DNA of 12,307 nt from Candidatus Methanophagales archaeon (GTDB lineage Archaea; Halobacteriota; Syntropharchaeia; Alkanophagales; Methanospirareceae), in contig JAUWNY010000068.1 of the NCBI GenBank assembly GCA_030612405.1, forward strand, positions 1 through 12,307, in the 5' to 3' direction. A program made the position numbers and the translations under genes. Positions within the stretch are counted from its first letter, which is position 1. Each line of letters opens with the position of its first letter. Of this stretch, positions 314 through 12,307 are shown in pieces. The notes beneath the pieces were generated by a model. The model worked only from the letters and a program-made list of their open reading frames with translations. It made no database searches and had not been told where the DNA came from.

Positions 314-754
314 ATGGATGATTTAGATAAGAAGATACTGAGAGAACTGCAGCGGAATTCTCGCAGTTCGTTCACGAAGATTGCACAGAACATAGGTGTA
401 AGCACTGCCACGGTAAGCGAGAGAGTAAAAAGGCTAACGGAAAAAGGAATTATCTGCGGCTATACTGCGGTTCTCAATACCTCTGAACTCGGCATGGTAA
501 CGTTAATCACAAAGATAAAAATCAAGCCGGGATATAGTGTTGATGAGGTGGGGAAGGAGATAGCGAAACTGGATGAGAGCTGCTGCATTCATCACGTAAC
601 CGGGGATTACGACCTGCTCGTTATCTCTAAGTGCGTGGGCCACGGGAAATGTGGAGCAGTGATAGAGAAAAAGAAGAACATAGAGGGTGTGCAGAGCGTG
701 GATGCGGAACTCGTGCTAAAAACGTTGAAGGAAGAGCTTAAGGTCAAACTGTAG
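314..754 (+). CDS. Lrp/AsnC-family (feast/famine) transcriptional regulator, HTH plus RAM domain
   Basis: N-terminus MDDLDKKILRELQRNSRSSFTKIAQNIGVSTATVSERVKRL is a typical AsnC HTH. The C-terminal half has VTGDYDLLV, typical of the RAM domain. 146 aa. Confidence 0.9.
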   Translation: MDDLDKKILRELQRNSRSSFTKIAQNIGVSTATVSERVKRLTEKGIICGYTAVLNTSELGMVTLITKIKIKPGYSVDEVGKEIAKLDESCCIHHVTGDYDLLVISKCVGHGKCGAVIEKKKNIEGVQSVDAELVLKTLKEELKVKL

Positions 755-903: not shown

Positions 904-914
904 GGAGGGAAAAA

Positions 915-929
915 CCTAAAATGTTTAGG
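915..929. promoter_or_regulatory. Perfect 6-3-6 palindrome CCTAAA-atg-TTTAGG (operator candidate)
   Basis: The same half-sites with a different spacer (aca) occur at 8603..8617, at the equivalent position of U2. Confidence 0.6.
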
Positions 930-1023
930 GAAAAGGTGGAAAACCTCACAGTAATTTAGTGAATCACATGAAAGTTCATTTTTAAAAAGTTTTTCGGCTA
1001 AAACTTCATGTTCGTTCACACCT

Positions 1024-1050
1024 GTAAAAAAACCGCAAGTTTTATATACT
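1024..1050 (+). promoter_or_regulatory. Core promoter (A-rich BRE-like tract plus TATA tttatata at 1041-1048)
   Basis: gtaaaaaaaccgcaagttttatatact. 21/27 identical to 10008..10034 and similar to 8712..8738. Confidence 0.6.
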
Positions 1051-1087
1051 GTAAATATACAATCTACCAGCAGGAGGTAAAAAATAA

Positions 1088-1119: not shown

Positions 1120-3882
1120 ATGGCGACAAGAACGAATTCTATAAGTAGTTGTAGTGATTTCAGAATGTCGCGGCGGACGTTCACTAAACTGGCGGCTTTA
1201 GGAACGGCGGCTGCTATCAGTGGAATCGGTGAAGTCGGCGCGTATCCTACGAAGTTTGTGGATAAACTGATCGAACCCGCGAGTGCGGCTCCGGAACCGA
1301 AAGTGGATCTTGTGAGGTCTATATGCGCGCATTGTTCAGTCGGCTGTGGATTCTACGGAAAGGTCGAGGATGGCGTGTTTACGGGCATGGAGCCCTGGGA
1401 GACTCATCCGATAAATGCCGGCGGGATGTGTTCCAAGGGCGCTTCCACGAGGGAAATGGTGGTCTCAGAGAGAAGGTTGAAATATCCGATGAAAAAGGTC
1501 GGCGGTAAGTGGGAGCGAATATCGTGGGATGCTGCGTTGGACGAGATTGCATCAAAGATGGCGGAAGTGAGAAGCAAATACGGACCAGATTCGGTGATGT
1601 TCCTGGGCTCGGCAAAGATGAACAACGAAGAGTGCTATATATACAGGAAGTTAGCTGCTTTCTGGGGCACGAACAATGTTGACCATCAGGCACGAATATG
1701 CCACTCCACTACGGTCCAAGGACTGGCGAACACGTGGGGCTTCGGCGCTCAAACGAACAACATTAATGATATGAGGCACTGCAAATGCCTGTTCTTCCTT
1801 GGCTCGAATGCTGCGGAAGCACATCCAGTGGCGATGCAGCACTTCCTCGAAGCTAAGGACAGGGGTGCTAAAATAATCGTTCTGGACCCGAGACGCACAA
1901 AAACCGCATCAAAGGCGGATATATTCAGTTGGTTCAGACCAGGAACAGATATACCAATAATGCTTGGGCTCATTAATGTCATTGTGAACAACGGCTGGCA
2001 CGATGAGGAGTTCATAAAGAACAGGACTATTGGATTCGATGATTTATGGGAAGTTGCAAAGGACTACACGCCTGAAGTGGTAGAGGACATCTCCTGGGTG
2101 CCTGCTGATACAATCAGGAACATAGCACGAACGCTGTACGAGAATAAGCCATCTGCAATATTCTGGGCAATGGGGCAGACACAGCATACTGTGGGGTCGA
2201 ACAACATCCACATGTCTGCGATTCTACAATTAGTCCTTGGGCATGCTGCACGGTCAGGAGGAGGTTGCCAGGCATTAAGGGGACATGACAACGTTCAGGG
2301 CTCTACCGACATGTGCTTACTCGCGCATTTACTACCAAGTTATTACGGACTTACTGAGAAAGGTTGGAAGCACTGGTGCGAGGTATGGGGCATTCCATAC
2401 GAGGAGATGGTCGGCAGGTTTGCATCGAAGGAGTTCATGGGAAAGAATGGGTTCACAGTTGCGAGATGGTATGAGGGAGTTATTATGCCCGAATCACAAA
2501 TAGACCAGCCACATAACATAAAAATATGCCTTGTGTGGGGTGAAGCGTTAAACTCAGTCACCGAAATGAAGCGGCAGAATGAAGCAATGGAGAAGCTTGA
2601 CCTCATGGTCATCGTTAACCCGCGTGCAAGTCCCGCTTCCGCATTGCCTGAGCGGTCAGATGGTATAATACTGCTTCCTGCATGCACATCATTCGAGAAA
2701 GCGGGAAGTGTAACAACCACCGGCAGACAAGTTCAGTGGAGACATAAGATTATAGACCCGCTTTGGGAGAGTAAGTCAGACTTCGTGATATATCAGGAAC
2801 TTGCAGCGAAGTTAGAGGAGAAGACGGGATTACCATTCAAGAAATACTTCACTTACTCACGTTCAGAGGATGTTTGGCCGGAGCTAAAGGCTGGGATGTT
2901 AGTCATCGGAATGCGACAAGACCCAGAGAGGCTGAAGACGCAACAGGAGTATGATACTACCTTTGATAGGGATACGCTGTGGTCAGAAGCTCTCAAGGAA
3001 TACTGGGGACTACCATGGCCTTGCTGGAACGATACGCACTGTGGAACGCCGCTATTGTATGATGCATCGAAACCTGTAAGCAGAGGAGGACATGACTTTA
3101 GAGTGAAATGGGGCAACACCGTTCCGGAGAACAAGTTTGGTAAACACGTTGGCGAGTCAATGCTGAGAGAGGACTATCCAGTTCCTCAGTATGGTTATGC
3201 ATACGACCCAGCGGAGATAGAGCGTGCACTTGCAGATGGCGAACCACCGACAGGGAGAGGGAAAGCAAGGATATGGATTTGGACATTTGCAGACCCGATT
3301 CCAATACACAGAGAGCCGATAGAGAGCCCAAGACCAGACCTAATTGATAAGTATCCGACGTACGACGATGTAGCATTCCAATACAGAGTACCCGCACCAT
3401 ATAAATCAAATCAGCAGGCGAGAAGGAACATTGTCGATAAGTATCCAATCGTTCTTACCACGGGCAGACAGGTAGAGCACATGGGAGGAGGTGCTCAAAC
3501 AAGAGGATGCGCTTATCTTGCGGAGCTTCAGCCAGAGATGTACGTGGAGATGAACCCAAAACTTGCTAGCGAAATCGGTGTTAATGTGCATAAAACAGGA
3601 ATAACGGATGACTATGTATGGGTAGAGACGCTCAGGGGGAGATGTAAGGTCAAAGCTTATGTGACGGAAGCAGTACCATACGACGAGACGCGGAAGACGG
3701 TATTTATGCCTTACCACTGGGCAGGCATATTTGAAGGCGTGTCTTATGAGGACAGATACCCGCCAGGATGCGGTGAAATCGTAGTCGGTGATTCAGTCAA
3801 TATCATTTGCGTTGACGGGTATGACATTCACACTCAGATGCAAGAGACGAAAGTGTGCCAATGTAATATATACAGGGCATAG
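1120..3882 (+). CDS. fdhA: Tat-exported molybdopterin (bis-MGD) oxidoreductase catalytic subunit, FdnG/FdoG-like formate dehydrogenase alpha, Cys-type
   Basis: Twin-arginine motif SRRTFTKL. N-terminal FeS motif CAHCSVGCGF...CSKG. DHQARICHSTTV and GSNAAEAHPV match E. coli FdnG DNQARVUHGPTV and GNAAEAHPV, with Cys replacing Sec. LRGHDNVQGS is also present. An alternative start at ATG 1165 (MSRRTF) is possible. Confidence 0.9.
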   Translation: MATRTNSISSCSDFRMSRRTFTKLAALGTAAAISGIGEVGAYPTKFVDKLIEPASAAPEPKVDLVRSICAHCSVGCGFYGKVEDGVFTGMEPWETHPINAGGMCSKGASTREMVVSERRLKYPMKKVGGKWERISWDAALDEIASKMAEVRSKYGPDSVMFLGSAKMNNEECYIYRKLAAFWGTNNVDHQARICHSTTVQGLANTWGFGAQTNNINDMRHCKCLFFLGSNAAEAHPVAMQHFLEAKDRGAKIIVLDPRRTKTASKADIFSWFRPGTDIPIMLGLINVIVNNGWHDEEFIKNRTIGFDDLWEVAKDYTPEVVEDISWVPADTIRNIARTLYENKPSAIFWAMGQTQHTVGSNNIHMSAILQLVLGHAARSGGGCQALRGHDNVQGSTDMCLLAHLLPSYYGLTEKGWKHWCEVWGIPYEEMVGRFASKEFMGKNGFTVARWYEGVIMPESQIDQPHNIKICLVWGEALNSVTEMKRQNEAMEKLDLMVIVNPRASPASALPERSDGIILLPACTSFEKAGSVTTTGRQVQWRHKIIDPLWESKSDFVIYQELAAKLEEKTGLPFKKYFTYSRSEDVWPELKAGMLVIGMRQDPERLKTQQEYDTTFDRDTLWSEALKEYWGLPWPCWNDTHCGTPLLYDASKPVSRGGHDFRVKWGNTVPENKFGKHVGESMLREDYPVPQYGYAYDPAEIERALADGEPPTGRGKARIWIWTFADPIPIHREPIESPRPDLIDKYPTYDDVAFQYRVPAPYKSNQQARRNIVDKYPIVLTTGRQVEHMGGGAQTRGCAYLAELQPEMYVEMNPKLASEIGVNVHKTGITDDYVWVETLRGRCKVKAYVTEAVPYDETRKTVFMPYHWAGIFEGVSYEDRYPPGCGEIVVGDSVNIICVDGYDIHTQMQETKVCQCNIYRA
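1165..1287 (+). other. Tat signal peptide region of the catalytic subunit
   Basis: MSRRTFTKLAALGTAAAISG... with the RR consensus, a hydrophobic core and a candidate A-S-A cleavage site. The cleavage position is a guess. Confidence 0.6.
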
Positions 3883-3894
3883 GAGGGATAAAAA

Positions 3895-4440
3895 ATGGTA
3901 ATATATAAATTCTTACATGATGTGGACCGATGTATAGACTGTGGAGGCTGCTTTGCTGCATGCAAAGACCATAACGGTGTTCCAGAGGGTGTAGCGAGGA
4001 TACGAGTGATAAGACTTAACGAGGGAAAGCCAGGGGAAAAATACGCAGCAATGGCTTGCATGCATTGCACTGACCCCGCATGCCTGAGAGCGTGTCCTAC
4101 GAAAGCGATAACCAAGCGACCAGATGGTATTGTGATAAACGACAAAGCCAAATGCATAGGATGTGGATACTGTAGTTGGGCGTGCCCGTTCGGGGCTCCG
4201 AAGTATCCGGATAAAGGACCTGTTGAACTCAGGGGAATAATGGACAAATGCACTTTCTGCGTTGTTCCATATGAACAAGAGAAGGATGTAGCGGGGAATT
4301 TAATACAGCACGAACCAAAACCAGTATGCGTTTCCTTCTGCGCAACCAAGGCACGGCTTGCAGGGGATGTCACGGAGATAACAAAAATATATACTGCGAG
4401 AATGGCTGGGAGATTGGTGCAAAGGCAAGTGGGGGTGTAA
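3895..4440 (+). CDS. fdhB: Four-cluster [4Fe-4S] ferredoxin-type electron-transfer subunit (DmsB/FdnH-core-like, no TM helix)
   Basis: Cys groups CIDCGGCFAAC, CMHCTDPACLRACP, CIGCGYCSWACP, CTFC...CVSFC. SD aggaggg lies upstream. 12-nt gap after the alpha gene. Confidence 0.9.
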   Translation: MVIYKFLHDVDRCIDCGGCFAACKDHNGVPEGVARIRVIRLNEGKPGEKYAAMACMHCTDPACLRACPTKAITKRPDGIVINDKAKCIGCGYCSWACPFGAPKYPDKGPVELRGIMDKCTFCVVPYEQEKDVAGNLIQHEPKPVCVSFCATKARLAGDVTEITKIYTARMAGRLVQRQVGV

Positions 4441-4447
4441 ATAGAGT

Positions 4448-5422
4448 ATGAGCCACACAGCATACGTTGTATTTACAGTATTCAGTCAGATGGCAGTGGG
4501 CGCACTGATAGCAATGGTCATCGCAGACTTTCTCGCGAAGGGAAAGGAGGATGCGAAGTTCTTTGAGACCGGGGCATGGGTATGTGTCCCGGTCGCGGTT
4601 ATTGGCTTGATAGCAATGCTCTCACACGAGGCACGTCCAATCCAAGCGATGATGACGATGAACGCAAACTTAGCTACGTCGTGGCTGAGCAGAGAGTCCT
4701 TAGCATTGACGGTGTTTGTAGTCTTAGCGGTGATATATACGGTGCTGTGGCTATTTGAGCCAGAATACGGCAGTCTCAAGGGGATACCCGTAATACCCAA
4801 GATAGCAAAGTTTTTTATGCCGCTCAGGAAGGTTGTTGGAATCTTAGGTGCGGTTATGGGATTTGCGTACCTCGGTATAGGTGCAAAGGCGTACATGATG
4901 CCCACTATGCCTTCGTGGAACTTAGACACAACGCCGCTGTTCTTCCTGGTTACTACTCTACTCGTGGGCGTAACGGCAGTAGCAGCAGTTCTTTCAGCGA
5001 AATACATGCTTAAAAAAGAAACCGTGGAACGTTTTGCGAACTTTCTTTGGGCTACATGGGGAATTGCGCTGGTAATGGTAATTGTGCTGCTCTTTACACT
5101 GTTTGCAAACATATCTGCGTTACAACAAGTTGGAGTGACAGAAGCCACAACACTAGCTCAAGCGGGAACACTGGAAAACATGCTGCATGGTGATTACACC
5201 GCGCTTTTCTATGCACGAGTGGTAATAGGCGTTATTCTGACACTCGTATGCTTGACAGCGCTTGTATTGCCGCTGAAGAAGAAGGACATCTCAAAAGCAT
5301 CGGCTCTTACACTCGCAGTGTTTCTGTGTGCGCTAATCGGCGAACTTCTGGGAAGGGCGGTGTTCTTCGGTGCGAACGTGTCACTTGGTGAAGTCATGCC
5401 CTACGTGTTATCTACGATATAA
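4448..5422 (+). CDS. Integral membrane anchor subunit, DmsC-like (about 8 TM helices)
   Basis: N-terminal VVFTVFSQMAVGAL resembles DmsC PLMIFTVFGQCVAG. C-terminal GELLGRAVFFG resembles the DmsC GR..FY motif. Eight hydrophobic segments counted by eye. Starts 7 nt after the FeS gene. Confidence 0.7.
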   Translation: MSHTAYVVFTVFSQMAVGALIAMVIADFLAKGKEDAKFFETGAWVCVPVAVIGLIAMLSHEARPIQAMMTMNANLATSWLSRESLALTVFVVLAVIYTVLWLFEPEYGSLKGIPVIPKIAKFFMPLRKVVGILGAVMGFAYLGIGAKAYMMPTMPSWNLDTTPLFFLVTTLLVGVTAVAAVLSAKYMLKKETVERFANFLWATWGIALVMVIVLLFTLFANISALQQVGVTEATTLAQAGTLENMLHGDYTALFYARVVIGVILTLVCLTALVLPLKKKDISKASALTLAVFLCALIGELLGRAVFFGANVSLGEVMPYVLSTI

Positions 5423-5440
5423 CATAAAAAAATAAAAAAC

Positions 5441-5498
5441 GGTTGTGGAAACAAACTTTAAGAAAGTTTGTTAAAAATCCACAACCTACTATTTTTTG
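5441..5498. terminator. Strong hairpin plus T-run between convergent operons (bidirectional terminator candidate)
   Basis: ggttgtggaaacaaacttt-aag-aaagtttgtt(aaaaa)tccacaacc, followed by tactatttttt. Confidence 0.6.
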
Positions 5499-5628
5499 CA
5501 AAATCTTTAAAAAATCTTCAAAATCAGAAGAAAAAAAACTCCATTTATCTCATCACTTACTTTTAACATCTACCTGGCTTCCCGAAATAAATCCAACCAT
5601 TTCAAACACCAAAGGAGTTTATTTAAGT

Positions 5629-5994
5629 CTATTCCTTCTCGGACTTAGAGGCTTCCAGCTTTGCCTGAACTTCCTCTTTTAACTCCTCTTCGGTCTTCCC
5701 TTCGGTATCTATGCCCATATACGCAGCCACTTCTGTTATGTTTACTTCCTCGCCCTTTGTCTTCGCGGTCGCTTTTTTCGGTATCTCTTCTTCACTGCCT
5801 GTCACAGATTCTTCAAATTTCTTGTAGTTAATCTCCGCTTCCTTCCTCGCTTTTTTGAACTCCCCCATTGCCTGTCCAAACGACCTGGCAAGTTGCGGCA
5901 CCTTAGTTGCGCCGAACAGCAGAATGATTATCAATACTATTATCCCAATCTCAGTTGGTCCTATCCCTCCAATAAAAAGCATTCCTCCAATCAT
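5629..5994 (-). CDS. tatA: Sec-independent translocase TatA/E-family protein with a long acidic C-terminal tail
   Basis: GPTEIGIIVLIIILLFGATKVPQLARSFGQAMGEFKKA matches the TatA TM-hinge-amphipathic helix signature. SD ggaggtg lies 8 nt upstream of the ATG. Confidence 0.85.
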   Translation of the reverse strand: MIGGMLFIGGIGPTEIGIIVLIIILLFGATKVPQLARSFGQAMGEFKKARKEAEINYKKFEESVTGSEEEIPKKATAKTKGEEVNITEVAAYMGIDTEGKTEEELKEEVQAKLEASKSEKE

Positions 5995-6065
5995 CGTTTT
6001 TTGGCACCTCCAATTTATATAATATTAATTAAGGTTGAAGGTATATATAAATATATCGTATTTTT

Positions 6066-6815
6066 TCAAGCTTTCTTTTTTAAAGAGAGTCTTGCTATTA
6101 GTAATCCAAGCTCGAACATAGCTATTGACACCACCGCCATCAACATTGAAATACCCGTAGGGTCGGCGATGACAAAGAGAGCGATTCCTATTATCAGCCC
6201 ATAAAATATCAGTCGCTTACCCCTGAGCCATGAATACGTTACGAGCTTCATCCTTACCGCCAGAGCCATTATTAAAGGGATTTGAAAAATCAGCCCGAAT
6301 CCCACAGCGGTGTAAAGGATAATAGAGAAAACCCTTTTAGCTGAAAGCCTCACCAGTGCTATCTCGCCGGAGTAGGCGATAATGTAATCAAAAACGCGTG
6401 GAAGCACGATGTAATAGGCGAAGAAAGCGCCGAGTCCATACAAGCATAGCGAAGGAATAACAACAATCATGAAAAATCGCCTCTCCGACGGATATAAACC
6501 CGGTCGCATAAAAGCGAAAATCTCATATAGTAACAAGGGTAAAATAACAGAAAGAGCACATAAAAAGGAGAACATCAGCCTCACGCTTAGCCATTCCATC
6601 GGACCGTACACAAATAAAGACATATCACCGTGGAATAGATGGGTTAATAAGACGTGAAGGTAATCGTTTGAAAAAGGGAACATGATCAGGGTAACCGCTG
6701 CGAACGGGATTAAAACAACGACGAGTCTTCTTCGTAGTTCGGCGAGATGCGCGATTAATGGAAGCTCCTCATCGCTCACAGGTTCACTTATCTCATTTCC
6801 AGTTTGCAATTCCAT
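6066..6815 (-). CDS. tatC: TatC paralogue 1
   Basis: LIAHLAELRRRLV (TatC N-terminus) and FMRPGLYPSERRF (compare E. coli FIAPALYKHERRL). Six hydrophobic segments. I prefer ATG 6815 (MELQ...). The ORF-track start at 6851 is a TTG. Confidence 0.8.
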   Translation of the reverse strand: MELQTGNEISEPVSDEELPLIAHLAELRRRLVVVLIPFAAVTLIMFPFSNDYLHVLLTHLFHGDMSLFVYGPMEWLSVRLMFSFLCALSVILPLLLYEIFAFMRPGLYPSERRFFMIVVIPSLCLYGLGAFFAYYIVLPRVFDYIIAYSGEIALVRLSAKRVFSIILYTAVGFGLIFQIPLIMALAVRMKLVTYSWLRGKRLIFYGLIIGIALFVIADPTGISMLMAVVSIAMFELGLLIARLSLKKKA

Positions 6816-6857
6816 TTTTTTCTTATCCTCTTCCCTTTTAGTCAGGAGCAATGACAG

Positions 6858-7592
6858 ATGACAAGCAGTAGCATCAGCGAGGAGTTTGGATATATAATAG
6901 AAGCGTTAAAGAGAAAAATCATGCTTATTTCGGGCATTGTCATCGCTACTATGCTTCTCTCTTTTTCTTTATTGGTAGACCCCGCGTTACAGAGGATAAA
7001 ACAAGACCTCCTGCCTGCAGGCGCCACCCTCATCTATATTTCACCCGTAGAAGTGATAATGCTGAAGTTAAGGATAGCCTTGCTCACTGGCGTAATACTT
7101 GCCACTCCTGTTGTATGCTATTATGCATATAAGACATTAAAAGCGAGGTTCGGGATAAAGAGTCCAATGAAAAAAACACATCTCTTTATATTGCTTGGTT
7201 CTGCCATTTCTTTGTTCATTGCAGGGATAAGTTACGCTTACTTCCTTATGCTGCCGCTCGTTCTCCGTTATCTCAACTATATGTCATCATCAGCGGGTGT
7301 TATTGCTACCTGGTCAATCAACGAGTTCGTATTTTTTGTTGTTGTAATAACGCTCATACTGGGGTTAGCGTTTGAACTGCCTATCGTTATCGTCTTTGTC
7401 GTTTATTCCGGACTCGTCCAGGTAAACACGCTGAAGGAATACAGGCGGTACGTCCTTGTGGGAATGTTCGTTCTCGCAGCATTTTTTACACCGCCAGATG
7501 TGGTGAGTCAGCTCATTGTCGCTTTTCCTTTGATTGTTTTCTATGAGGTAGGAATAATACTTGCGAGCATTATCTCTAAGAGACGTTTGTAA
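6858..7592 (+). CDS. tatC: TatC paralogue 2, divergently transcribed from paralogue 1
   Basis: [30 protein letters not shown] matches E. coli [32 protein letters not shown] matches FEVPVAIVL. SD caggag lies upstream. Confidence 0.85.
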   Translation: [244 protein letters not shown]

Positions 7593-7595
7593 TTG

Positions 7596-7645
7596 CAAGA
7601 AAACAGAAAATAAATTATAGACACAGATTAACGCAGATTAACACA
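7596..7645 (+). repeat. Intergenic repeat 'module A', copy 2
   Basis: 49/50 identical to 113..162. Starts 4 nt after the tatC2 stop. Confidence 0.9.
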
Positions 7646-7750
7646 GATGATAAGAATCAACACGCTTAAACTACAAGAAATGGTAGTAAACATAGGATAA
7701 AATCATTAATATAACGCTGAAAATGGGTTTCTGTTATTGTTCTCTCGTGA

Positions 7751-7770
7751 AAATCTGTGTAATCTTGTGG
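7751..7770 (-). repeat. Inverted arm partner of module A copy 2 (CCACAAGATTACACAGATTT on the minus strand)
   Basis: aaatctgtgtaatcttgtgg is an imperfect reverse complement of the CACAGATTAA units at 7621-7645. A tttata box (minus strand, 7796-7791) lies about 23 bp away. Confidence 0.55.
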
Positions 7771-7796
7771 TTAATACTTTTTGGAATGACTATAAA

Positions 7797-8522
7797 TCAC
7801 AAAATCCGCCATCCGTTCGTGTACACATTAAACCGTTTATCGCGGGCGAACCCGACAAGGGTTATGCCAAATTCGGTTGCATCTCGTATTGCCTGTTCAG
7901 TAGGTGCAGAAACGCTTATGGCAACAGGGAAACCCGCAAAGAGCACCTTCTTCACGGTGGTGTGCGTTTGTCGGGAAGAAGTAACTAAAATGTTTTCAGA
8001 AATCGCTATCCCGTTTTTAATGCACGTCCCTATGAGCTTGTCTATCGCGCAATGCCTGCTAACATCTTCGATAAAGATGCCCTGTCCATTTTGATCGAAA
8101 GCCGCAACCACATGCGTGCCACCCGTCGCTTTATACAATACGCCCTCCTCTTCTAACTCTTTTACACGTTTAAACACGTCTTCGCACCTTATTTTTATCC
8201 TTGAGTTGACCTTCGAGGGCTTCCGATGGACTTCTCGCTCTAACGTAACACGTATTACATATTTCCCGGGTTTCGCCTCTTCGACATCGAGATTCGCGAT
8301 GTAAGAAGTGTCAAGCCCCTCGGAGTTCAAATGCCCGATTGCCAGCTCTTCAAAATGCGAAGGCAGGCAAAATAACTGGCTGTGTAGTTCTCCCCCTACG
8401 TCTATCCTTACTTCCGCTTCGCGAACGACAAAATCGTCTCTACGTCTTTGTAAGCATTTATCTCCAGAAACTTCGCGGATTTTCACGGGGGCAAGCGCTC
8501 CCCCCCTTTTCTTCGGGTCCAT
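7797..8522 (-). CDS. fdhD: FdhD-family formate dehydrogenase accessory sulfurtransferase
   Basis: ATGGTHVVAAF, SRHCAIDKLIG (compare GRHNAxDK), LVTSSRQTHTTVKK, VSAPTEQAIRDATEFGITLVGFAR. 241 aa. Confidence 0.85.
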   Translation of the reverse strand: MDPKKRGGALAPVKIREVSGDKCLQRRRDDFVVREAEVRIDVGGELHSQLFCLPSHFEELAIGHLNSEGLDTSYIANLDVEEAKPGKYVIRVTLEREVHRKPSKVNSRIKIRCEDVFKRVKELEEEGVLYKATGGTHVVAAFDQNGQGIFIEDVSRHCAIDKLIGTCIKNGIAISENILVTSSRQTHTTVKKVLFAGFPVAISVSAPTEQAIRDATEFGITLVGFARDKRFNVYTNGWRIL

Positions 8523-8578
8523 ACTGTTTTATCAATCATATTTTTAAACCAAATCTTCTTAAATCAAACGACTGAAAG

Positions 8579-8738
8579 TTTGGTTAGAAGATGCAGACAA
8601 AACCTAAAACATTTAGGGAAAAAACCAAAAACCTATCAATAATTTAGAAAAAACAGTAAAAACTTCATTTTTAAAAAGAATCTTCGTTAATGTCTTATAT
8701 TCATTTGTGTCGCAAAAAATCGAAAGCTTTTTATACTG
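8579..8738. promoter_or_regulatory. Control module U2 in the fdhD / cytochrome divergent intergenic region (homologue of 901..1051)
   Basis: The collinear block 8599..8738 (140 nt) aligns with 911..1051 (141 nt) and shares all conserved sub-blocks. TATA tttttata at 8728-8735. Confidence 0.75.
8603..8617. promoter_or_regulatory. Perfect 6-3-6 palindrome CCTAAA-aca-TTTAGG (operator candidate)
   Basis: Half-sites identical to 915..929 with a different spacer. Confidence 0.6.
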
Positions 8739-8795
8739 CGTAATCCCAAAGTTACGTAACAGCGATTCTATTGGATATAGGGAGATAGAAGAAAG

Positions 8796-9929
8796 ATGCC
8801 AAAAAGAGAATACGCAAGAAGCTGTAAATCGATGAGTGCAATAGTGAAGACTGCGAAGCCAATGTTGCCCCTGCTAGTTATTGCAGTGTTAGCGGTATCG
8901 CTGGTGAGTATAGCGATAGCGGCTGAGGAAGACTTCGGCGGTTGTGAAGGCTGTCACCCGGGAATTGCCGAGAATTTTTCGACATCGCTGCACTACACCC
9001 TCAGGGGAATGCCGGCAGAGTGGGAGAAAGGTGCAGCAGGGCATTTCGGAATTGATATGGATGCGTTTTATGCAAAGGGCAACTGCACTAACTGCCATGT
9101 CAGCACCTGCGAAAAGTGCCATGAAGGAGGGCATGGTGCGGAGATAACCATAGATACATGTGACCAATGCCATTTAAAGAAGCAGGCAGGGTTTGTAGGA
9201 GATACTCCAGCACATAAAGGTACAGGACCCAACGCCGACATCCACTATGAGATGGGGCTTATATGCATAGATTGCCATACAGCGGAAGAGATGCACGGTA
9301 CTGGTGTTGAGTATAGCACGATGCTTGAAGCAGTCACGACAGAGTGTGAGGACTGCCACAACAGTCCGGGGAAGGTTGTCAAGGACATGCCCGTGACGCA
9401 GTATTCACCTGATACGCCATCGCACAAGATACACGGAGAGAAACTTGACTGTACAGCATGCCACTCAGGATGGACGCCAACATGTACAAACTGCCATATA
9501 GATATCGAGAAGCCTCCCGGGACGGCTACAGTAGTGACAGACGAGTTCTATCTTGCTAAAGGTGTTGATGGCAAGATAAAACCGTTCCTTAAAATAGCGG
9601 CTATCTATAATAACGAAACGCATACAGGATGGGCTGAATGGTTCCCTCATACAACCACAAAAGTGGCAAAAGACTGTGCATTCTGTCACGAAAACCCGGA
9701 AGTGCTCTGTGAGGGTTGCGAGGATCAAACCCCCCTCACAATGCTCGGACCCGGAGGTTCATTCATACCACAAGAGACGATAGACAAGGTTTTAGCTGTA
9801 GAAATGCCTGCGGCACCAACGGAAACACCAGCAGAACCAGCAGCAACGCCTACACCACCAGGTTTCGAACTGATATTCGCAGTGATTGCTATTGCAGTGG
9901 TTGTGCTTCTTGCAAAACGGAGACATTAG
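8796..9929 (+). CDS. Nonaheme c-type cytochrome, secreted, with Thr/Pro linker and PGF-CTERM anchor
   Basis: Nine CxxCH motifs: CEGCH, CTNCH, CEKCH, CDQCH, CIDCH, CEDCH, CTACH, CTNCH, CAFCH. N-terminal hydrophobic signal MLPLLVIAVLAVSLVSIAIAA. C-terminus PAEPAATPTPPGFELIFAVIAIAVVVLLAKRRH. Confidence 0.95.
   Translation: MPKREYARSCKSMSAIVKTAKPMLPLLVIAVLAVSLVSIAIAAEEDFGGCEGCHPGIAENFSTSLHYTLRGMPAEWEKGAAGHFGIDMDAFYAKGNCTNCHVSTCEKCHEGGHGAEITIDTCDQCHLKKQAGFVGDTPAHKGTGPNADIHYEMGLICIDCHTAEEMHGTGVEYSTMLEAVTTECEDCHNSPGKVVKDMPVTQYSPDTPSHKIHGEKLDCTACHSGWTPTCTNCHIDIEKPPGTATVVTDEFYLAKGVDGKIKPFLKIAAIYNNETHTGWAEWFPHTTTKVAKDCAFCHENPEVLCEGCEDQTPLTMLGPGGSFIPQETIDKVLAVEMPAAPTETPAEPAATPTPPGFELIFAVIAIAVVVLLAKRRH
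9858..9926 (+). other. PGF-CTERM archaeosortase-A sorting signal
   Basis: PGF, then a hydrophobic helix, then KRRH at the extreme C-terminus, preceded by a T/P-rich linker. Confidence 0.85.
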
Positions 9930-9944
9930 GTAAAAAAGAGTGTG

Positions 9945-9986
9945 AGGGTCTAAGCAATCGGCTGGACCCTTTTTTTTATTTTTTTA
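9945..9986 (+). terminator. Hairpin (agggtc/gaccct) plus T8-A-T7 terminator
   Basis: agggtctaagcaatcggctggaccctttttttttattttttt. Duplicated at 11759..11799. Confidence 0.7.
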
Positions 9987-10007
9987 TTGCATAATACTCA
10001 ATAAAGC

Positions 10008-10034
10008 GTAAAAAATCGGAAACCATTATATACT
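10008..10034 (+). promoter_or_regulatory. Core promoter U3 of the 426-aa gene (TATA ttatatac at 10026-10033)
   Basis: gtaaaaaatcggaaaccattatatact is 21/27 identical to 1024..1050. The downstream 15-mer agcaggaggtaaaaa (10067-10081) is identical to 1069-1083. Confidence 0.6.
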
Positions 10035-10082
10035 CTAAAATTTAAGGAAGATATTACATGTCTAATAGCAGGAGGTAAAAAT

Positions 10083-11363
10083 ATGGGTAAAAATAGAATA
10101 GTGATAACTGTTGTAGCAACAGTTATTGTTGCTGCTCTGGTTCTATCGGCTGTATCTGTTGCACAGATGCACGGTAAGGGCGGAATGCAGAGAATGGGGC
10201 CACAGCAGGCAATGGGCGTAGGGCAGGGGTTACGTCATGGAGCTGGCATGCACGGTGGTCCAGGATTTATGTATCAGAGCGGGTGTGCGTATGGCGAATA
10301 CGTAACATTTTCTGTGGATGAAACAAGCGGAATCGTTTATGACTATGGCATAGCCGGGGATCCTATGCTGACCTCCATCGAGGTCGTTGATTTTGAATAT
10401 GGCGACACAATAGTGAGTGGTGCAGTCACACGGATTATAAATGAGAATGGCTCAATAGCGATTATGTTGCACGATACGCCGTCAGCGCCGTTGAATTTTT
10501 TAGCCACAACGGATTTCACCGTTAAATTCGAGGTGGCAGACGGCGTAACGATATCAGAGGACGATACTGGTGTGAAACTCGAATCAGGCGAGGTGTCTGC
10601 ATATATCCTTGCAACTGCGCCAGCAGGCGTCACAGCACCAGCAGTAACGATATCCGGGCAAATAGTCACGATTGATGCACCTGCTAGCAGTGTAGTGCTG
10701 CTTCGAGCAGTACCTGTGATTTTTGGGTATGACGGTGCCACCATGACAATGAACAGAAACTTCGTCAGGCGGATGGTAAACGACCAAATCGGGGCTGATG
10801 TCACCATCGGTGCACAACAAAGTGCATATTGCATTTTTGATTACGCCAACCTGACTCCGATGCAGTTATCATACAACAACCGAACATGCTTTAGAATACT
10901 AAATAGAACTCCGACACAACTTAAAATCGCACTGAACTCGGATTCACCATTGGGCAGGCTGATTGGCATCAATCTCGACAATGCTTTCGGACTGCAGGAC
11001 CGTGAGACGTTGCAGATTCGATACGATGGTAGGGTTTTGCCGTGTTTATCTAATCCCGAACAGGTAATACAAGCACGTGAAACTACCTGCTGGTTAAATC
11101 GATACAACAACACAAGGGCACAGTTGATGCTATATGTAAGCAACTTTTCCGAGCATATTCTCGAAATCGAAGTTTATGAGGAGAGAGAAGAGGTGGAGCC
11201 TACTGCCGCTCCGAATGTGACTCAAACACCGACATCCACGCCATTCGAACCAACTGTGACAGAGTCACCCACACAGGACACACCAGGATTTGGTGCACTT
11301 GCAGTCGTTATGGGGGTTATCGTTGCATTAATCATGAAACGGCGTTACGGGCGTTCCAAATAA
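10083..11363 (+). CDS. Secreted PGF-CTERM surface protein of unknown function with a Met/His/Gly-rich N-terminal segment, probably a glycoprotein
   Basis: Signal/TM IVITVVATVIVAALVLSAVSVA. Then MHGKGGMQRMGPQQAMGVGQGLRHGAGMHGGPGFM. Seven N-x-S/T sequons. C-terminal T/P-rich linker plus PGFGALAVVMGVIVALIMKRRYGRSK. I recognise no family for the central domain. Confidence 0.8.
   Translation: MGKNRIVITVVATVIVAALVLSAVSVAQMHGKGGMQRMGPQQAMGVGQGLRHGAGMHGGPGFMYQSGCAYGEYVTFSVDETSGIVYDYGIAGDPMLTSIEVVDFEYGDTIVSGAVTRIINENGSIAIMLHDTPSAPLNFLATTDFTVKFEVADGVTISEDDTGVKLESGEVSAYILATAPAGVTAPAVTISGQIVTIDAPASSVVLLRAVPVIFGYDGATMTMNRNFVRRMVNDQIGADVTIGAQQSAYCIFDYANLTPMQLSYNNRTCFRILNRTPTQLKIALNSDSPLGRLIGINLDNAFGLQDRETLQIRYDGRVLPCLSNPEQVIQARETTCWLNRYNNTRAQLMLYVSNFSEHILEIEVYEEREEVEPTAAPNVTQTPTSTPFEPTVTESPTQDTPGFGALAVVMGVIVALIMKRRYGRSK
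11283..11360 (+). other. PGF-CTERM sorting signal
   Basis: TPGFGALAVVMGVIVALIMKRRYGRSK. Confidence 0.8.
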
Positions 11364-11382: not shown

Positions 11383-11461
11383 CCCAATTCCGCAAAACAT
11401 TAAACAGTATTCCAATTTTGAACAAAACCCCTTCGGGGAAATTTAGAACGCGTTAGTTCGC

Positions 11462-11743
11462 ACACACAGTAACAGACACAAGCCAAAGGATTGTGTATTC
11501 TGCCACGACAGCAAGGAAGTGCTTTGCGAGGGTTGCGAAGGTGATATTCTCGGACAAGGAGGTTCACTTATAGCTCAAGAGACGATAGACAAGATATACG
11601 GGATAGCTATGCCAACTGAAACACCAACACCAACGGTCACATCGGCTACGCCAGCAGCAACGCCTACACCACCAGGTTTCGAACTGATATTCGCAGTGAT
11701 TGCAATTGCAGTGGTTGTGCTTCTTGCAAAACGGAGACATTAG
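11462..11743 (+). pseudogene. 5'-truncated remnant of a paralogous multiheme cytochrome gene (last CxxCH, linker and PGF-CTERM)
   Basis: In-frame translation ...KDCVFCHDSKEVLCEGCEGDILGQGGSLIAQETIDK...PGFELIFAVIAIAVVVLLAKRRH parallels residues KDCAFCHENPEVLCEGCEDQ... of the 8796 gene. The frame is closed by TAG at 11444-11446 and has no ATG upstream of the homology. The ORF-track start at 11519 is a GTG inside the homology. Confidence 0.75.
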
Positions 11744-11758
11744 TTAAAAAAGAGGGTG

Positions 11759-11799
11759 AGGGTCTAAGCAATCGGCTGGACCCTTTTTTTATTTTTTTA
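11759..11799 (+). terminator. Second copy of the hairpin plus oligo-T terminator
   Basis: agggtctaagcaatcggctggaccctttttttattttttt. Confidence 0.7.
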
Positions 11800-11846
11800 T
11801 TGTATATAAAGTATAGCTTCCTTCTATTCAAGACACAGATTTATAC
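11794..11846 (+). repeat. Intergenic repeat 'module B', copy 2 (TATA tatataaa at 11803-11810)
   Basis: 48/53 identical to the reverse complement of 260..312. Confidence 0.85.
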
Positions 11847-11855
11847 AAATTAAGC

Positions 11856-11933: not shown

Positions 11934-11965
11934 TTATCATCTGTGTTAATCTGTGAATAATTTTT
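11934..11965 (-). repeat. Intergenic repeat 'module A', copy 3 (inverted, one decamer unit fewer)
   Basis: The reverse complement of 11934..11953 (cagattaacacagatgataa) is 20/20 identical to 7634..7653. The upstream aaaaattatt resembles aaataaattat of copies 1 and 2. Confidence 0.75.
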
Positions 11966-12307
11966 GGTAGTGTCCTAATTAAGAATAGTTAATGAAAAGA
12001 AATCGTGCCATGTCCATAGGTGGTCTGTTAATCCTTCCAACATTGCAGGTGAAGTTCTTCTTTTGAACTCATTTATGAAATTCCAGTAGAATTGAAACAG
12101 TTGGATTGAACCTTCCAATCTCCATCTCCGTTTTGAGAAACATTTTGTCTTTCGTACTAATCTACCATTCCTCTCTCGTAGTATTCCATTGAAGTTCTCA
12201 ATGTCGGTGGTTTCTATATCGCCGTGGTCGGGGTTGCCGTATATTGTCCTTTTCTCCTTACGGACGACTCTTCCCTTCTCCCTGATCTTTACAAGCTGCC
12301 CATAATC
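11966..12307 (-). mobile_element. Terminus of an IS1-family-like insertion sequence that continues beyond the window
   Basis: The outermost bases ggtagtgtcctaattaag begin like IS1 inverted repeats (GGTA/GATG...). The transposase stop codon lies inside this terminal segment, as in IS1. Confidence 0.55.
11975..12307 (-). CDS. C-terminal part of an IS1-family-like DDE transposase (5' end outside the window)
   Basis: My own minus-strand translation: ...TTDIENFNGILRERNGRLVRKTKCFSKRRWRLEGSIQLFQFYWNF.... The pattern T-x2-IE-x2-N-x2-LR-x4-RL-x-RK-x3-FSK matches E. coli InsB [28 protein letters not shown]. This ORF is absent from the supplied ORF track because it has no start codon in the window. Confidence 0.65.
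   Translation of the reverse strand, partial: DYGQLVKIREKGRVVRKEKRTIYGNPDHGDIETTDIENFNGILRERNGRLVRKTKCFSKRRWRLEGSIQLFQFYWNFINEFKRRTSPAMLEGLTDHLWTWHDFFSLTILN

Follow-up and report, generated by a model that had tools for sequence, protein, structure and literature searches.

A membrane-bound, outward-facing formate dehydrogenase island inserted next to a nine-heme cytochrome gene in ANME-1 archaea

Does the formate dehydrogenase (FDH) cluster of this Candidatus Methanophagales contig form a dedicated extracellular electron-transfer module with the nine-heme cytochrome encoded beside it? The initial annotation of the window, i.e., the whole 12,307-nt stretch of DNA analysed here, proposed that it does, and every gene that it listed was recovered at its position. 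The window holds the ANME-1 (Methanophagales) membrane-bound, outward-facing formate dehydrogenase cluster. On balance, we lean towards reading it as a formate:menaquinone oxidoreductase island whose tie to the nine-heme cytochrome is regulatory, not dedicated.

The catalytic subunit FdhA (1120..3882, + strand, 920 aa), a Tat-exported protein of the W/Mo-bisPGD, Cys type, contains three Mo/W-bisPGD Pfam domains, a Tat motif (S17-RRTFTK) and the FeS motif C69AHCSVGC (C69xxCxxxC). Its active site keeps Cys194-His195, within ARIC194H195, and Arg387, within R387GHDNVQG. The best solved relative is the Shewanella SoFdhA (PDB 9VAP_A), which matches over the full length (E 3.5e-246, 823 bits). Each of the best 24 PDB matches is an FDH or FDH-like protein (YjgC), and FDH models top the NCBIfam ranking, the best being FDH alpha for FdhA and FDH3 beta for FdhB. 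Both rankings bear out the proposed formate dehydrogenase type and separate FdhA from the tetrathionate, polysulfide and arsenate types. FdhA scores 508.7 bits with TIGR01591 (curated cutoff 666) and FdhB 194.8 bits with NF038355, FDH3_beta (cutoff 240). Because these equivalog scores lie under their cutoffs, the substrate assignment rests on homology and active-site residues, which predict a true formate-dehydrogenase type. The low scores would also fit another Mo/W-bisPGD oxidoreductase with, for example, an oxyanion of sulfur, nitrogen or arsenic as its substrate, and the cited part of Chadwick et al. warns that the substrates of other ANME FdhA homologs, which are cytoplasmic, are unknown (PMC9012536). 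However, rival models score far lower (NasC 315, PhsA 224, NapA 175 and ArrA 67 bits, versus 509 for Fdh-alpha), and the full-length SoFdhA match, the conserved Cys-His pair and catalytic Arg motif, and the adjacent fdhD gene make this reading extremely improbable.

FdhB (3895..4440, + strand, 181 aa; 9VAP_B, E 3.9e-50) is the electron-transfer subunit, with 16 Cys for four [4Fe-4S] clusters. It contains neither a signal peptide nor a TM helix, in keeping with a Tat hitch-hiker. The third gene (4448..5422, + strand) encodes a heme-free anchor of the DmsC/NrfD type (PF04976 DmsC, 73 bits; PF03916 NrfD, 41.7 bits) with about eight hydrophobic segments, three His and a presumed quinone site; a DmsC-like gene is the third gene of the operon throughout the ANME-1 and Alkanophaga loci (51-96% identity). 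The architecture first suggested for the complex is thus upheld: FdhA carries the SRRTFTK motif for Tat export, its FeS partner FdhB lacks a signal, and the third subunit matches PF04976 as an anchor of the DmsC/NrfD type.

Further downstream lie genes for TatA (5629..5994, - strand; PF02416; TIGR01411, 62 bits, cutoff 53.9), two TatC paralogs (both PF00902) and FdhD, the sulfurtransferase/chaperone for the FDH cofactor (7797..8522, - strand; TIGR00129, 167.5 bits, cutoff 140.9). The first TatC (6066..6851, - strand) fits the general tatC model best (TIGR00945, 143.3 bits, cutoff 132.7), and the second (6858..7592, + strand) the archaeal TatC model (TIGR01912, 169.3 bits, below the cutoff of 192.6). 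That the Tat genes are dedicated to the FDH would follow from gene position only. Upstream, an Lrp/AsnC-family transcription regulator (314..754, + strand; PF13404, PF13412, PF01037) is a candidate regulator of the island; lrp directly precedes fdhA in L001-L004, L009, L014, L020 and L034, and is deleted in L006. Among ANME-1 and Alkanophaga relatives, FdhABC, Tat and FdhD are co-conserved, so that the co-conservation anticipated for the whole module holds for these genes but not for the cytochrome or the 426-aa protein.

The FDH, Tat and FdhD genes form an insertion of about 11.8 kb in a conserved ccm/ahb heme locus; in several ANME-1 lineages, it has a radical-SAM gene of the heme-synthesis type on one side and the cytochrome gene on the other. 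In L002, the order is radSAM (- strand), polyFd, TorD, NifU, Lrp, FdhABC, TatA, TatC, TatC, FdhD and cytochrome. In L021, which is an FDH-less locus though not necessarily an FDH-less genome, the orthologous radical-SAM gene (84% identity) lies 314 nt from the cytochrome gene, with ccmCAB upstream and ahbAB downstream. Downstream in L020, the order is cytochrome-moaA-ahbAB-radSAM. The FDH island recombines among ANME-1 lineages. L020 is a mosaic in which the flanking genes are 92-97% identical while FdhA and FdhB are 59% and 76% identical, and in L001 fdhABC are 93% and the tat genes 77% identical.

In the cytochrome (8796..9929, + strand; PF14522, PF14537), the CxxCH motif occurs exactly nine times. 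The N-terminus bears a hydrophobic segment of the Sec type, and a match to PF18204 (23.5 bits, over the cutoff of 18.8) marks a lipid anchor of the PGF-CTERM type. The anchor supports the proposed surface anchoring as far as the outer face of the cytoplasmic membrane, but not necessarily beyond the cell envelope. The 152 homologs of the cytochrome occur in ANME-1, Syntrophoarchaeum, Argoarchaeum and Methanococcoides, and this widespread family includes contexts without FDH (L018, L019). The FDH island adjoins the cytochrome in the window, L002, L006 and L020, and five FDH loci lack the nine-heme cytochrome (L001, L005, L014, L017 and L028). The cytochrome is a resident gene of the ccm/ahb heme locus and no dedicated part of an FDH module: the claim of membership fails on the same locus without the island in L021, on the spread of the family without FDH and on the five FDH loci devoid of it.

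What links the two is a regulatory sequence. The fdhA upstream module (905..1062, + strand) comprises the 15-bp palindrome CCTAAAATGTTTAGG (915-929), a second box and a BRE/TATA-like core (1028-1048); the cytochrome upstream module (8593..8740, + strand) comprises the palindrome CCTAAAACATTTAGG (8603-8617) and a BRE/TATA-like core (8715-8735). These modules of about 150 nt are 66% identical over 162 columns, with an alignment score of 41 against -10 +/- 5.7 for shuffles, and the palindrome occurs twice in the window versus 0.06 times expected. In L002, L006 and L020 the module precedes the cytochrome gene, but it is missing before the cytochrome gene of the FDH-less loci L021 and L018; among the loci compared, it is hence confined to FDH-positive ones. 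Shared promoter modules had been described for three transcription units; the likeness holds for fdhA and the cytochrome, and for the 426-aa gene it is limited to the core promoter and the RBS region. Because both promoters carry the same palindromic operator-like module, fdhA and the cytochrome are probably co-regulated, as the sequences suggest for island-bearing genomes, and the adjacent Lrp-type regulator is the candidate for this control.

Several known systems resemble the window in part. The Shewanella oneidensis FdhA1B1C1 (So_4509-4511; PDB 9VAP) is homologous over the full length of both subunits (E 3.5e-246 and 3.9e-50), has an identical ARICHSTTV active-site stretch, is likewise exported by Tat and clusters with a TorD-type chaperone, but in the membrane it uses a cytochrome b, FdhC, instead of the heme-free DmsC/NrfD type. 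SoFdhAB is W-dependent and reversible, oxidizing formate at 253 s-1 and reducing CO2 at 52 s-1 (PMC13066108). The E. coli FDH-N (FdnGHI) is likewise a respiratory FDH of three subunits that faces the periplasm and delivers electrons to the quinone pool. However, the selenoprotein FdnG is more distant from the window FdhA (246 bits), FdhB lacks the C-terminal TM helix of FdnH, and the di-heme cytochrome b FdnI sets up a redox loop, which a DmsC/NrfD anchor would not. DmsABC and PsrABC combine a Tat-exported catalytic subunit and a four-cluster subunit with an eight-helix, heme-free quinone anchor, whereas the catalytic subunit of the window belongs to the FDH clade and not to the DMSO or polysulfide reductase clades. 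The Desulfovibrio FdhABC3, which the window resembles in that FdhB fits the FDH3_beta model best (though below its cutoff), has a periplasmic FdhAB able to pass electrons to multiheme c-type cytochromes; its cytochrome c3 is dedicated, while that of the window is nine-heme, PGF-CTERM anchored, outside the operon and also found without FDH. The true FdhABC3 analogues are the sister-clade archaeal operons L013, L030 and L031, in which a lipid-anchored triheme PGF-CTERM cytochrome c accompanies FdhA and FdhB and replaces the anchor. A Methanocellales relative (L017) retains a cytochrome b membrane subunit. FdhA homologs with 47-48% identity occur in Methanonatronarchaeia (P0052, P0080), where, as summarised in PMC7374477, a membrane-bound FDH was modelled as an electron input to the membrane pool (Sorokin et al. 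2017), a precedent for the direction of electron flow favoured here. According to this summary, FdhABI resembles the window in being an archaeal membrane-bound FDH that feeds a membrane carrier in a host with c-type cytochromes, but it has a b-type heme anchor and HdrDE as sink, which ANME-1 lack.

The initial annotation did not recognise this gene combination as a described system. However, the 'Formate transfer' section of Chadwick et al. 2022 (PMC9012536) presents an ANME-1 FDH that faces outward, bears secretion signals, is tied to the quinol pool by a DmsC-like anchor and is sporadically distributed; it suggests a c-type cytochrome link as possible and cites Meyerdierks 2010 as having drawn a cytochrome as the FDH anchor. 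Since the outward-facing ANME-1 FDH is published, the system is not undescribed: the window cluster is the same thing as the ANME-1 FDH cluster of Meyerdierks et al. 2010 and Chadwick et al. 2022, and its FdhA is 95-97% identical in four public ANME-1-type contigs, including L001 (GoMg2), L006 (GoMg1) and L004 (M5.MMPM). The parts of the Chadwick et al. text available to us make no mention of the Tat and FdhD genes as parts of one island, of the ccm/ahb/cytochrome insertion site, of an operator common to the fdhA and cytochrome promoters, or of the catalytic-subunit allele swap. Hence the FDH island is a useful lead, though no new system.

By analogy with these families, FdhA would be folded and loaded with W- or Mo-bisPGD in the cytoplasm, assisted by FdhD and probably by the TorD-like chaperone that relatives encode just upstream of the window. 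FdhA and the signal-less, four-cluster FdhB would be exported together by the TatA/TatC/TatC of the neighbouring genes, and the pair would dock on the heme-free DmsC/NrfD-type subunit. Formate would be oxidised outside the membrane and its two electrons would pass through five FeS clusters to a membrane quinone, probably menaquinone in ANME-1, making the complex a formate:quinone oxidoreductase and electron-input module. Any path from FDH to the cytochrome would require the quinone pool and a putative quinol oxidase, or direct contact. A P-side quinone site on the NrfD-type anchor would conserve little energy from the drop of ~350 mV, which would be odd for a respiratory input, and the shared operator and triheme operons may mean that cytochromes are closer FDH partners than this preferred reading holds. 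As reported in sections of PMC9012536, Fqo and futalosine-pathway genes are present in ANME-1. Against the preferred reading, the same source notes that ANME-1 lack HdrDE, with no obvious sink known for formate-derived quinol, and that in the papers it summarises added formate did not inhibit AOM and did not consistently stimulate consortia.

The extracellular module proposed at first would carry electrons from formate, oxidised outside the membrane, through the membrane pool and the nine-heme surface cytochrome to an acceptor, either insoluble or syntrophic; the 426-aa protein would perhaps take part. It agrees with the adjacency of island and cytochrome in four loci, with the operator restricted to FDH-positive loci and with the scores, albeit weak, of the cytochrome family against Geobacter ExtN/ExtO/ExtM-type models. 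It nevertheless appears unlikely, given the cytochrome loci without FDH and FDH loci without cytochrome described above, the PGF-CTERM anchor that holds the cytochrome at the membrane, the lack of any encoded quinol:cytochrome oxidoreductase in the window, and a 426-aa gene unique to the window lineage, between a duplication and an IS1 fragment.

Methane oxidation leaves ANME with eight electrons per methane to export. In reverse operation, the enzyme would dispose of electrons by reducing CO2 outside the cell, and the formate would act as a diffusible sink, passed on to a sulfate reducer by interspecies transfer. Menaquinone lies at about -74 mV and CO2/formate at about -430 mV; the step from quinol to CO2 would be strongly uphill, and the heme-free NrfD-type anchor provides no obvious means of driving it. 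The closest characterised homolog, SoFdhAB, is a fast CO2 reductase, and formate is considered more plausible than H2 for ANME-1 in the cited part of PMC9012536. However, the lack of inhibition of AOM by added formate (PMC9012536) argues against this direction, and because the island is sporadic it cannot be a general AOM mechanism; we regard reverse operation as distinctly unlikely. Direct exchange between FdhAB and a lipid-anchored multiheme cytochrome, as between the Desulfovibrio FdhAB and cytochrome c3, would leave the DmsC-like subunit mainly as a docking site. The FDH3 beta similarity of FdhB, the triheme operons, the common operator and the cytochrome anchor of Meyerdierks 2010, as cited in PMC9012536, are in line with it, but the DmsC-like third gene is strictly kept in ANME-1 and Alkanophaga, and the nine-heme cytochrome has a transcription unit of its own, bears no relationship to the triheme protein and occurs without FDH, leaving this option very unlikely.

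The 426-aa protein (10083..11363, + strand) is an uncharacterised surface protein of the MAST family (PF27849) and PGF-CTERM type. Its N-terminus bears a TM/signal segment, and its C-terminus an invariant PGF, TM and basic tail. It was counted as a module component, but it lies outside the conserved island and none of the other FDH loci examined has it; it is a later, lineage-specific insertion. Its gene is flanked by a duplicated cytochrome 3′ end and by the C-terminal part of an IS1-family transposase that runs off the window (11990..12307, - strand). The transposase fragment was detected by tblastn against the IS1 family (E 4e-8 to 2e-4), with no match in Pfam or NCBIfam. The truncated duplicate (11456..11743, + strand), which the initial annotation did not list, retains the ninth heme motif CVFCH, the linker and PGF-CTERM, and duplicated sequence continues to about 11811. 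The repeats D1, D2, D4 and D7 align 9667-10006 to 11484-11811 (71-92% identity), and each copy corresponds to the 3′ end of the cytochrome gene in L020.

All the components listed in an initial annotation of the window, which had proposed a formate dehydrogenase (FDH) joined to a surface cytochrome for extracellular electron transfer, were recovered at the positions given for them by ORF listing and profile searches. On the forward strand, an lrp/asnC gene (314-754) precedes fdhA, encoding the 920-aa Mo/W-bisPGD subunit (1120-3882), fdhB (3895-4440; 181 aa with 16 Cys, i.e., four clusters, and neither a signal peptide nor a TM helix) and the gene of a DmsC/NrfD-type membrane protein (4448-5422) that has about eight hydrophobic segments but just three His. 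Downstream lie tatA (5629-5994) and tatC (6066-6851) on the reverse strand, a second tatC on the forward strand (6858-7592) and, again on the reverse strand, fdhD (7797-8522), whose product scores above the cutoff of TIGR00129. The forward-strand cytochrome gene (8796-9929) encodes 377 aa with a Sec-type leader, exactly nine CxxCH motifs and a PGF-CTERM match (PF18204, 23.5 bits against a cutoff of 18.8); no archaeosortase gene is found inside the window.

FdhA combines an N-terminal [4Fe-4S] domain (C69AHCSVGC...C104) with the molybdopterin oxidoreductase fold (PF04879, PF00384 and PF01568), in which C194-H195 of ARICHS form the metal ligand and catalytic pair and R387 of LRGHDNVQG is the catalytic Arg. 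The active-site stretch ARICHSTTV is identical in SoFdhA, the FDH catalytic subunit of Shewanella oneidensis, and the R387 stretch aligns with LRGQNNVQG of HDCR FdhF. In a sequence search of the PDB, the top 24 matches of FdhA were without exception FDHs or the FDH-like YjgC; the best was 9VAP_A over the full length (E 3.5e-246, 823 bits), chain B of the same entry being the best match of FdhB (E 3.9e-50). This structure is the W-dependent SoFdhAB of S. oneidensis (So_4509/4510), with rates of 253 s-1 for formate oxidation and 52 s-1 for CO2 reduction (PMC13066108). Among NCBIfam models, Fdh-alpha TIGR01591 ranked first (508.7 bits), ahead of NasC (315), PhsA (224), NapA (175) and ArrA (67). 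FdhA scores below the curated equivalog cutoff of every FDH model (TIGR01591, 508.7 vs 666.25; TIGR01553, 366.2 vs 814.2), but despite this the FDH models rank at the top by a wide margin. FdhA is of the formate dehydrogenase type, and the clustering with non-formate enzymes that would have spoken against the initial annotation was seen neither in the PDB search nor in the NCBIfam ranking. In a scan of one genome per species, FdhA was 95-97% identical in contigs that include those of ANME-1 GoMg1 and GoMg2, of Methanophagales MAGs and of the MAG M5.MMPM, whose record gives Methanomicrobiales, and 78% identical in Candidatus Alkanophaga; the window is accordingly assigned to ANME-1 (Methanophagales). 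In relatives at 83-85% identity, a second molybdopterin oxidoreductase of 734-754 aa, about 30-32% identical to FdhA and accompanied by its own FeS subunit, is encoded directly upstream of fdhA (L014:7072-9800, L015 and L016; the loci of relatives are designated L001-L034). Similar gene pairs occur at L022:788-3516 and L023:16706-19269.

FdhA carries the Tat motif S17RRTFTK followed by a hydrophobic stretch, and FdhB, its signal-less partner, is predicted to be a Tat hitch-hiker. The operon has the layout of the DmsABC/PsrABC-type CISM enzymes, i.e., a catalytic subunit, a four-cluster subunit and a DmsC/NrfD anchor, and the FdhABC order is kept in L001, L002, L004-L007, L014-L016, L020, L024, L026 and L028. 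It differs from FDH-N (FdnGHI), whose beta subunit is TM-anchored, in that FdhB lacks a TM helix and the third gene encodes a DmsC/NrfD-type protein rather than a di-heme cytochrome b gamma subunit. It also differs from the FdhABC3 type, the cytochrome of the window being encoded outside the fdhAB operon, about 3.4 kb downstream (5422 to 8796) and past the four Tat and FdhD genes, three of which are on the opposite strand. The DmsC-like subunit had no sequence match in the PDB at E <= 1.

A cytochrome within the operon is found in L013, L030 and L031, a sister clade of 'Halobacteriota' MAGs and metagenomes with FdhA 53-55% identical to that of the window. There, the third gene (L013:10854-11381, L030:4375-4890 and L031:9690-10238) encodes a 171-182-aa triheme c-type cytochrome with a PGF-CTERM anchor and stands where the DmsC/NrfD or cytochrome b gene would be, so that these operons look like an archaeal counterpart of FdhABC3. 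A cytochrome b anchor was seen only in the Methanocellales locus L017 (FdhA 68% identical), where L017:13363-14361 encodes a Ni_hydr_CYTB-type protein; molybdate/tungstate-type ABC transporter genes also lie near this FDH locus. With this cytochrome b, the archaeal FDH clade has at least three alternative third subunits (DmsC/NrfD, cytochrome b and lipid-anchored triheme cytochrome c), a series whose comparison shows which electron partners are open to the enzyme.

By translation, the FdhD protein has five Cys and lacks a CxxC pair, and its Pfam match is split into two stretches. E. coli FdhD relays sulfur via a Cys pair, which FdsC-type homologs are not known to have. Upstream of lrp in relatives, beyond the window, are genes for a FlpD/HdrA-like polyferredoxin, a TorD/DmsD-like Tat chaperone and a NifU-like protein. 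The polyferredoxin, a cytoplasmic protein of 686-716 aa that combines FlpD/MvhD-like with HdrA-like parts, shows strong co-conservation with the exported FDH (L002:5317-8760; also L014, L016, L017, L022, L026, L028-L030 and L034) and is accompanied by the TorD/DmsD-like chaperone and sometimes by NifU. The polyferredoxin may have a role in maturation, or it may be an alternative partner in the cytoplasm.

The initial annotation did not recognize this gene combination as a described system, but it is not undescribed: Chadwick et al. 2022 (PMC9012536), in their part on 'Formate transfer', describe a membrane-bound FDH with secretion signals in five ANME-1 genomes, four of which add a DmsC-like gene that probably links FDH to the ANME-1 quinol. 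As cited there, Meyerdierks et al. 2010 drew the ANME-1 FDH either free in the pseudoperiplasm or anchored by a c-type cytochrome. [quoted passage not shown] A 2026 paper on ANME-1 'genomic hotspots' mentions neither formate nor cytochromes nor Tat (PMC13385816). The system is thus already known and the existence of the cluster is not news; new here are the boundaries of the island, the operator common to the fdhA and cytochrome promoters, the mosaicism of alleles and the variety of third subunits, all of them useful as leads and moderately interesting.

L002, L006 (GoMg1, without lrp) and L020 share with the window the order Lrp-FdhA-FdhB-DmsC-TatA-TatC-TatC-FdhD-cytochrome. At L006:5-270, lrp and its surroundings (window about 260-906) are deleted, and the palindromes upstream of fdhA and of the cytochrome gene are retained. 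The FDH genes form an island, which in L002 runs from the polyferredoxin to FdhD over about 11.8 kb, between a minus-strand radical-SAM/SPASM gene and the cytochrome gene. In L021, an island-less locus though not necessarily from an island-less genome, the orthologous radical-SAM gene (84% identity) and the cytochrome gene are direct neighbours, 314 nt apart. This comparison of presence and absence places the left boundary between the radical-SAM and polyferredoxin genes and the right one some 75 nt before the cytochrome gene begins. As island ends, the 61-nt inverted repeats (255-315 and 11791-11851) were considered and rejected, because the same comparison puts the boundaries elsewhere. A defined island of this kind, carrying Tat, FdhD and TorD genes of its own, explains the sporadic distribution of FDH, and its known insertion boundaries allow presence/absence comparisons between otherwise similar populations.

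The cytochrome was initially regarded as part of a dedicated unit with the FDH, an expectation which co-conservation does not bear out. It adjoins FDH in four loci (the window, L002, L006 and L020), is absent from five informative FDH loci (L001, L005, L014, L017 and L028) and occurs without FDH in three (L018, L019 and L021, the first two in unrelated contexts). In GoMg2 (L001, FdhA 95%), both FdhD and the cytochrome are missing after TatC, where a 916-aa FeS/flavoprotein ORF that looks HdrA/HdrD-like is found instead. The Alkanophaga-type loci L005, L026 and L028 (76-78%) keep FdhABC, FdhD and Tat; no multiheme ORF is present at the FDH locus of L005 or L028, and the L026 sequence ends shortly past TatC. 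In L014-L016 (83-85%), FdhABC is kept with its NrfD/DmsC anchor, past which neither Tat genes nor a cytochrome adjoin in L014 and L015; the L016 sequence stops with the anchor. In L021, ccmC/A/B lie upstream of the cytochrome and radical-SAM genes, and ahbA/B with another radical-SAM gene lie downstream; the same ahb genes follow the cytochrome in L020. These neighbourhoods, together with that of L002, indicate that the cytochrome belongs to a heme-biosynthesis/cytochrome-maturation locus, with or without the island. Both this and the breadth of the family, of which 152 members were detected in ANME-1, Syntrophoarchaeum, Argoarchaeum and cultured Methanococcoides, speak against FDH and cytochrome forming a dedicated unit. 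Searches of the cytochrome against PDB sequences gave weak heme-motif matches only.

Some loci are mosaics. Between L020:447-3797 and window 1120-4440, FdhA is 59% and FdhB 76% identical, with Lrp, DmsC, TatA, both TatC and FdhD at 92-97%; the divergent FdhA retains the Tat motif, the Cys-His pair and the Arg. Within an otherwise near-identical island, fdhAB has been replaced by recombination. L001 shows the opposite mosaic, with fdhABC at about 93% DNA identity and the tat genes (L001:11643-13607 vs window 5639-7588) at only 77% (TatC1, 67% at the protein level). The window cytochrome is 60-71% identical to those of L002, L006 and L020, all of which keep nine hemes, and the flanking genes are 90-97% identical, which points to fast evolution or allele exchange of the cytochrome gene.

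What stands of the link between FDH and cytochrome is a shared upstream module. The regions upstream of fdhA (905-1062) and of the cytochrome gene (8593-8740) are 66% identical over 162 columns, with a global alignment score of 41 (shuffles, -10 +/- 5.7, maximum 9) and a local score of 54 (<= 25 against other intergenic regions of the window). Both contain a 15-bp palindrome, CCTAAA-NNN-TTTAGG (915-929 and 8603-8617), and the 17-nt palindrome pattern occurs twice in the window for 0.06 expected. Among 23 loci, the palindrome is confined to the upstream regions of fdhA (L001, L003, L004, L006, L009 and L020) and of the cytochrome gene in FDH-positive loci (L002, L006 and, with one mismatch, L020); it was not found upstream of the cytochrome gene in L021 or L018. 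The core promoter AAAAAYCGNAANNNTTNTATA, BRE/TATA-like and downstream of the palindrome, was rejected as a specific sign of co-regulation since it also occurs at unrelated genes (L021 and L023), leaving the upstream palindrome as the only specific element. Such an AT-centred 15-bp palindrome would be consistent with archaeal Lrp/AsnC operators, which makes the product of the adjacent lrp gene the obvious candidate for the regulator. The initial idea is thereby restored in part: in loci with the island, the fdh operon and the cytochrome gene are probably co-regulated, and the palindrome, common to both promoters only in island-bearing loci, offers a testable handle. A further short element, TCTAnnAGCAGGAGGTAAAAA, lies upstream of fdhA (1063-1083) and of the gene of the 426-aa protein (10061-10081). 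At the latter it supplies the ribosome-binding site, and at fdhA it is followed by a mini-ORF of 8 codons (1088-1114), whose end lies immediately ahead of the real RBS and the start codon.

From the gene content, motifs, homology and synteny observed here, a mechanism may be proposed in which FdhD would sulfurate the FDH cofactor, FdhAB would be exported via Tat and dock on the DmsC/NrfD subunit, and electrons would pass to menaquinone. The established potentials of CO2/formate (about -430 mV) and menaquinone (about -74 mV) make formate oxidation the favourable direction; for quinol to reduce CO2, electrons would have to be driven steeply uphill, and no coupling device for this step is apparent. 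Catalytically, enzymes of this family are nevertheless reversible (PMC13066108), and in Methanonatronarchaeia, whose homologs are 47-48% identical, FDH is modelled as an electron input to the membrane pool (PMC7374477). Alternatively, electrons may pass directly from FDH to cytochromes, as suggested by the sister-clade operons, at 53-55% identity, that encode a triheme PGF-CTERM cytochrome c instead of an anchor. The observation of the initial annotation is confirmed and its interpretation partly supported.

The cluster bears on how ANME-1 hands electrons over to its partners, including a possible part for formate. Beyond co-regulation, we consider it possible but rather unlikely that in island-bearing ANME-1 the resident cytochrome has moved under the Lrp-type palindromic operator of fdhABC, giving a formate-responsive regulon that joins an outward-facing formate/CO2 enzyme to cytochrome-based electron exchange, in a unit with its own Tat that spreads and swaps catalytic alleles by recombination between ANME-1 populations. 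If such a regulon exists, some ANME-1 would be able to alternate between interspecies electron transfer by formate and by cytochromes, or to use the two together. If W-dependent and oxygen-tolerant like its Shewanella relative, the FDH may also interest CO2-reduction biocatalysis.

The 426-aa protein (10083-11363, forward strand), also proposed as a component of the module, is instead a lineage-specific insertion: it is absent at every other FDH locus examined, and its gene is flanked by a duplication followed by an IS1 fragment. The protein has a leader and an archaeosortase A-type sorting signal, with a Thr/Pro-rich linker, an invariant P401-G402-F403, a TM helix and a KRRYGRSK basic tail; its PGF-CTERM HMM match is under threshold. 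All ten detectable homologs carry a precomputed PF27849 'MAST' annotation, and the protein itself does not match the MAST profile TIGR04204 at E <= 0.01. MAST genes neighbour an ArsP_1 permease and a thioredoxin in L022 and L023, where they lie 4-6 kb from the molybdopterin oxidoreductase pairs. An AlphaFold2 model from the ten homologs is mostly beta and of low confidence (mean pLDDT 51.8), and Foldseek comparison with the PDB was uninformative, reaching TM-scores of only about 0.2 to beta-sandwich domains of glycosidases. The duplication (9667-10006 vs 11484-11811, about 330 nt, 71-92% identity) comprises the cytochrome 3' end and a terminator-like sequence. From 11456 on the forward strand, this truncated second copy still encodes, by translation, the ninth heme motif CVFCH and the PGF-CTERM. 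The C-terminal part of an IS1-family transposase (reverse strand, 11990-12307) runs off the right window end; it has no Pfam or NCBIfam match and was recognized by tblastn against plasmids (E down to 4e-8). The IS1 fragment and the duplication mark the right end of the window as rearranged.

No RNA gene was found in the window by an Rfam scan at E <= 0.1 or a tRNA scan, so the dispersed intergenic repeats do not belong to any known RNA family. One of these, of 50-80 nt with tandem CAGATTAAC motifs, is present at 113-162 and 7596-7645 (98% identical), with partial copies at 11826-11853 and 11934-11953 and L002 copies at 7409-7486 and 8745-8815; several copies lie within the island in different lineages. 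The 61-nt inverted repeat (255-315 and 11791-11851, 87% complementary; also 799-819, L020:9228-9288 and L006:8866-8928) contains a BRE/TATA-like TTTTTATTGTATATAAAGTATAGCTTCC with AAGACACAGATTTA after it. One copy directly adjoins the lrp start codon and the other is 3' of the cytochrome gene or its remnant, a position kept in relatives between convergent gene ends; the repeat might serve as promoter for a small RNA that is not annotated.
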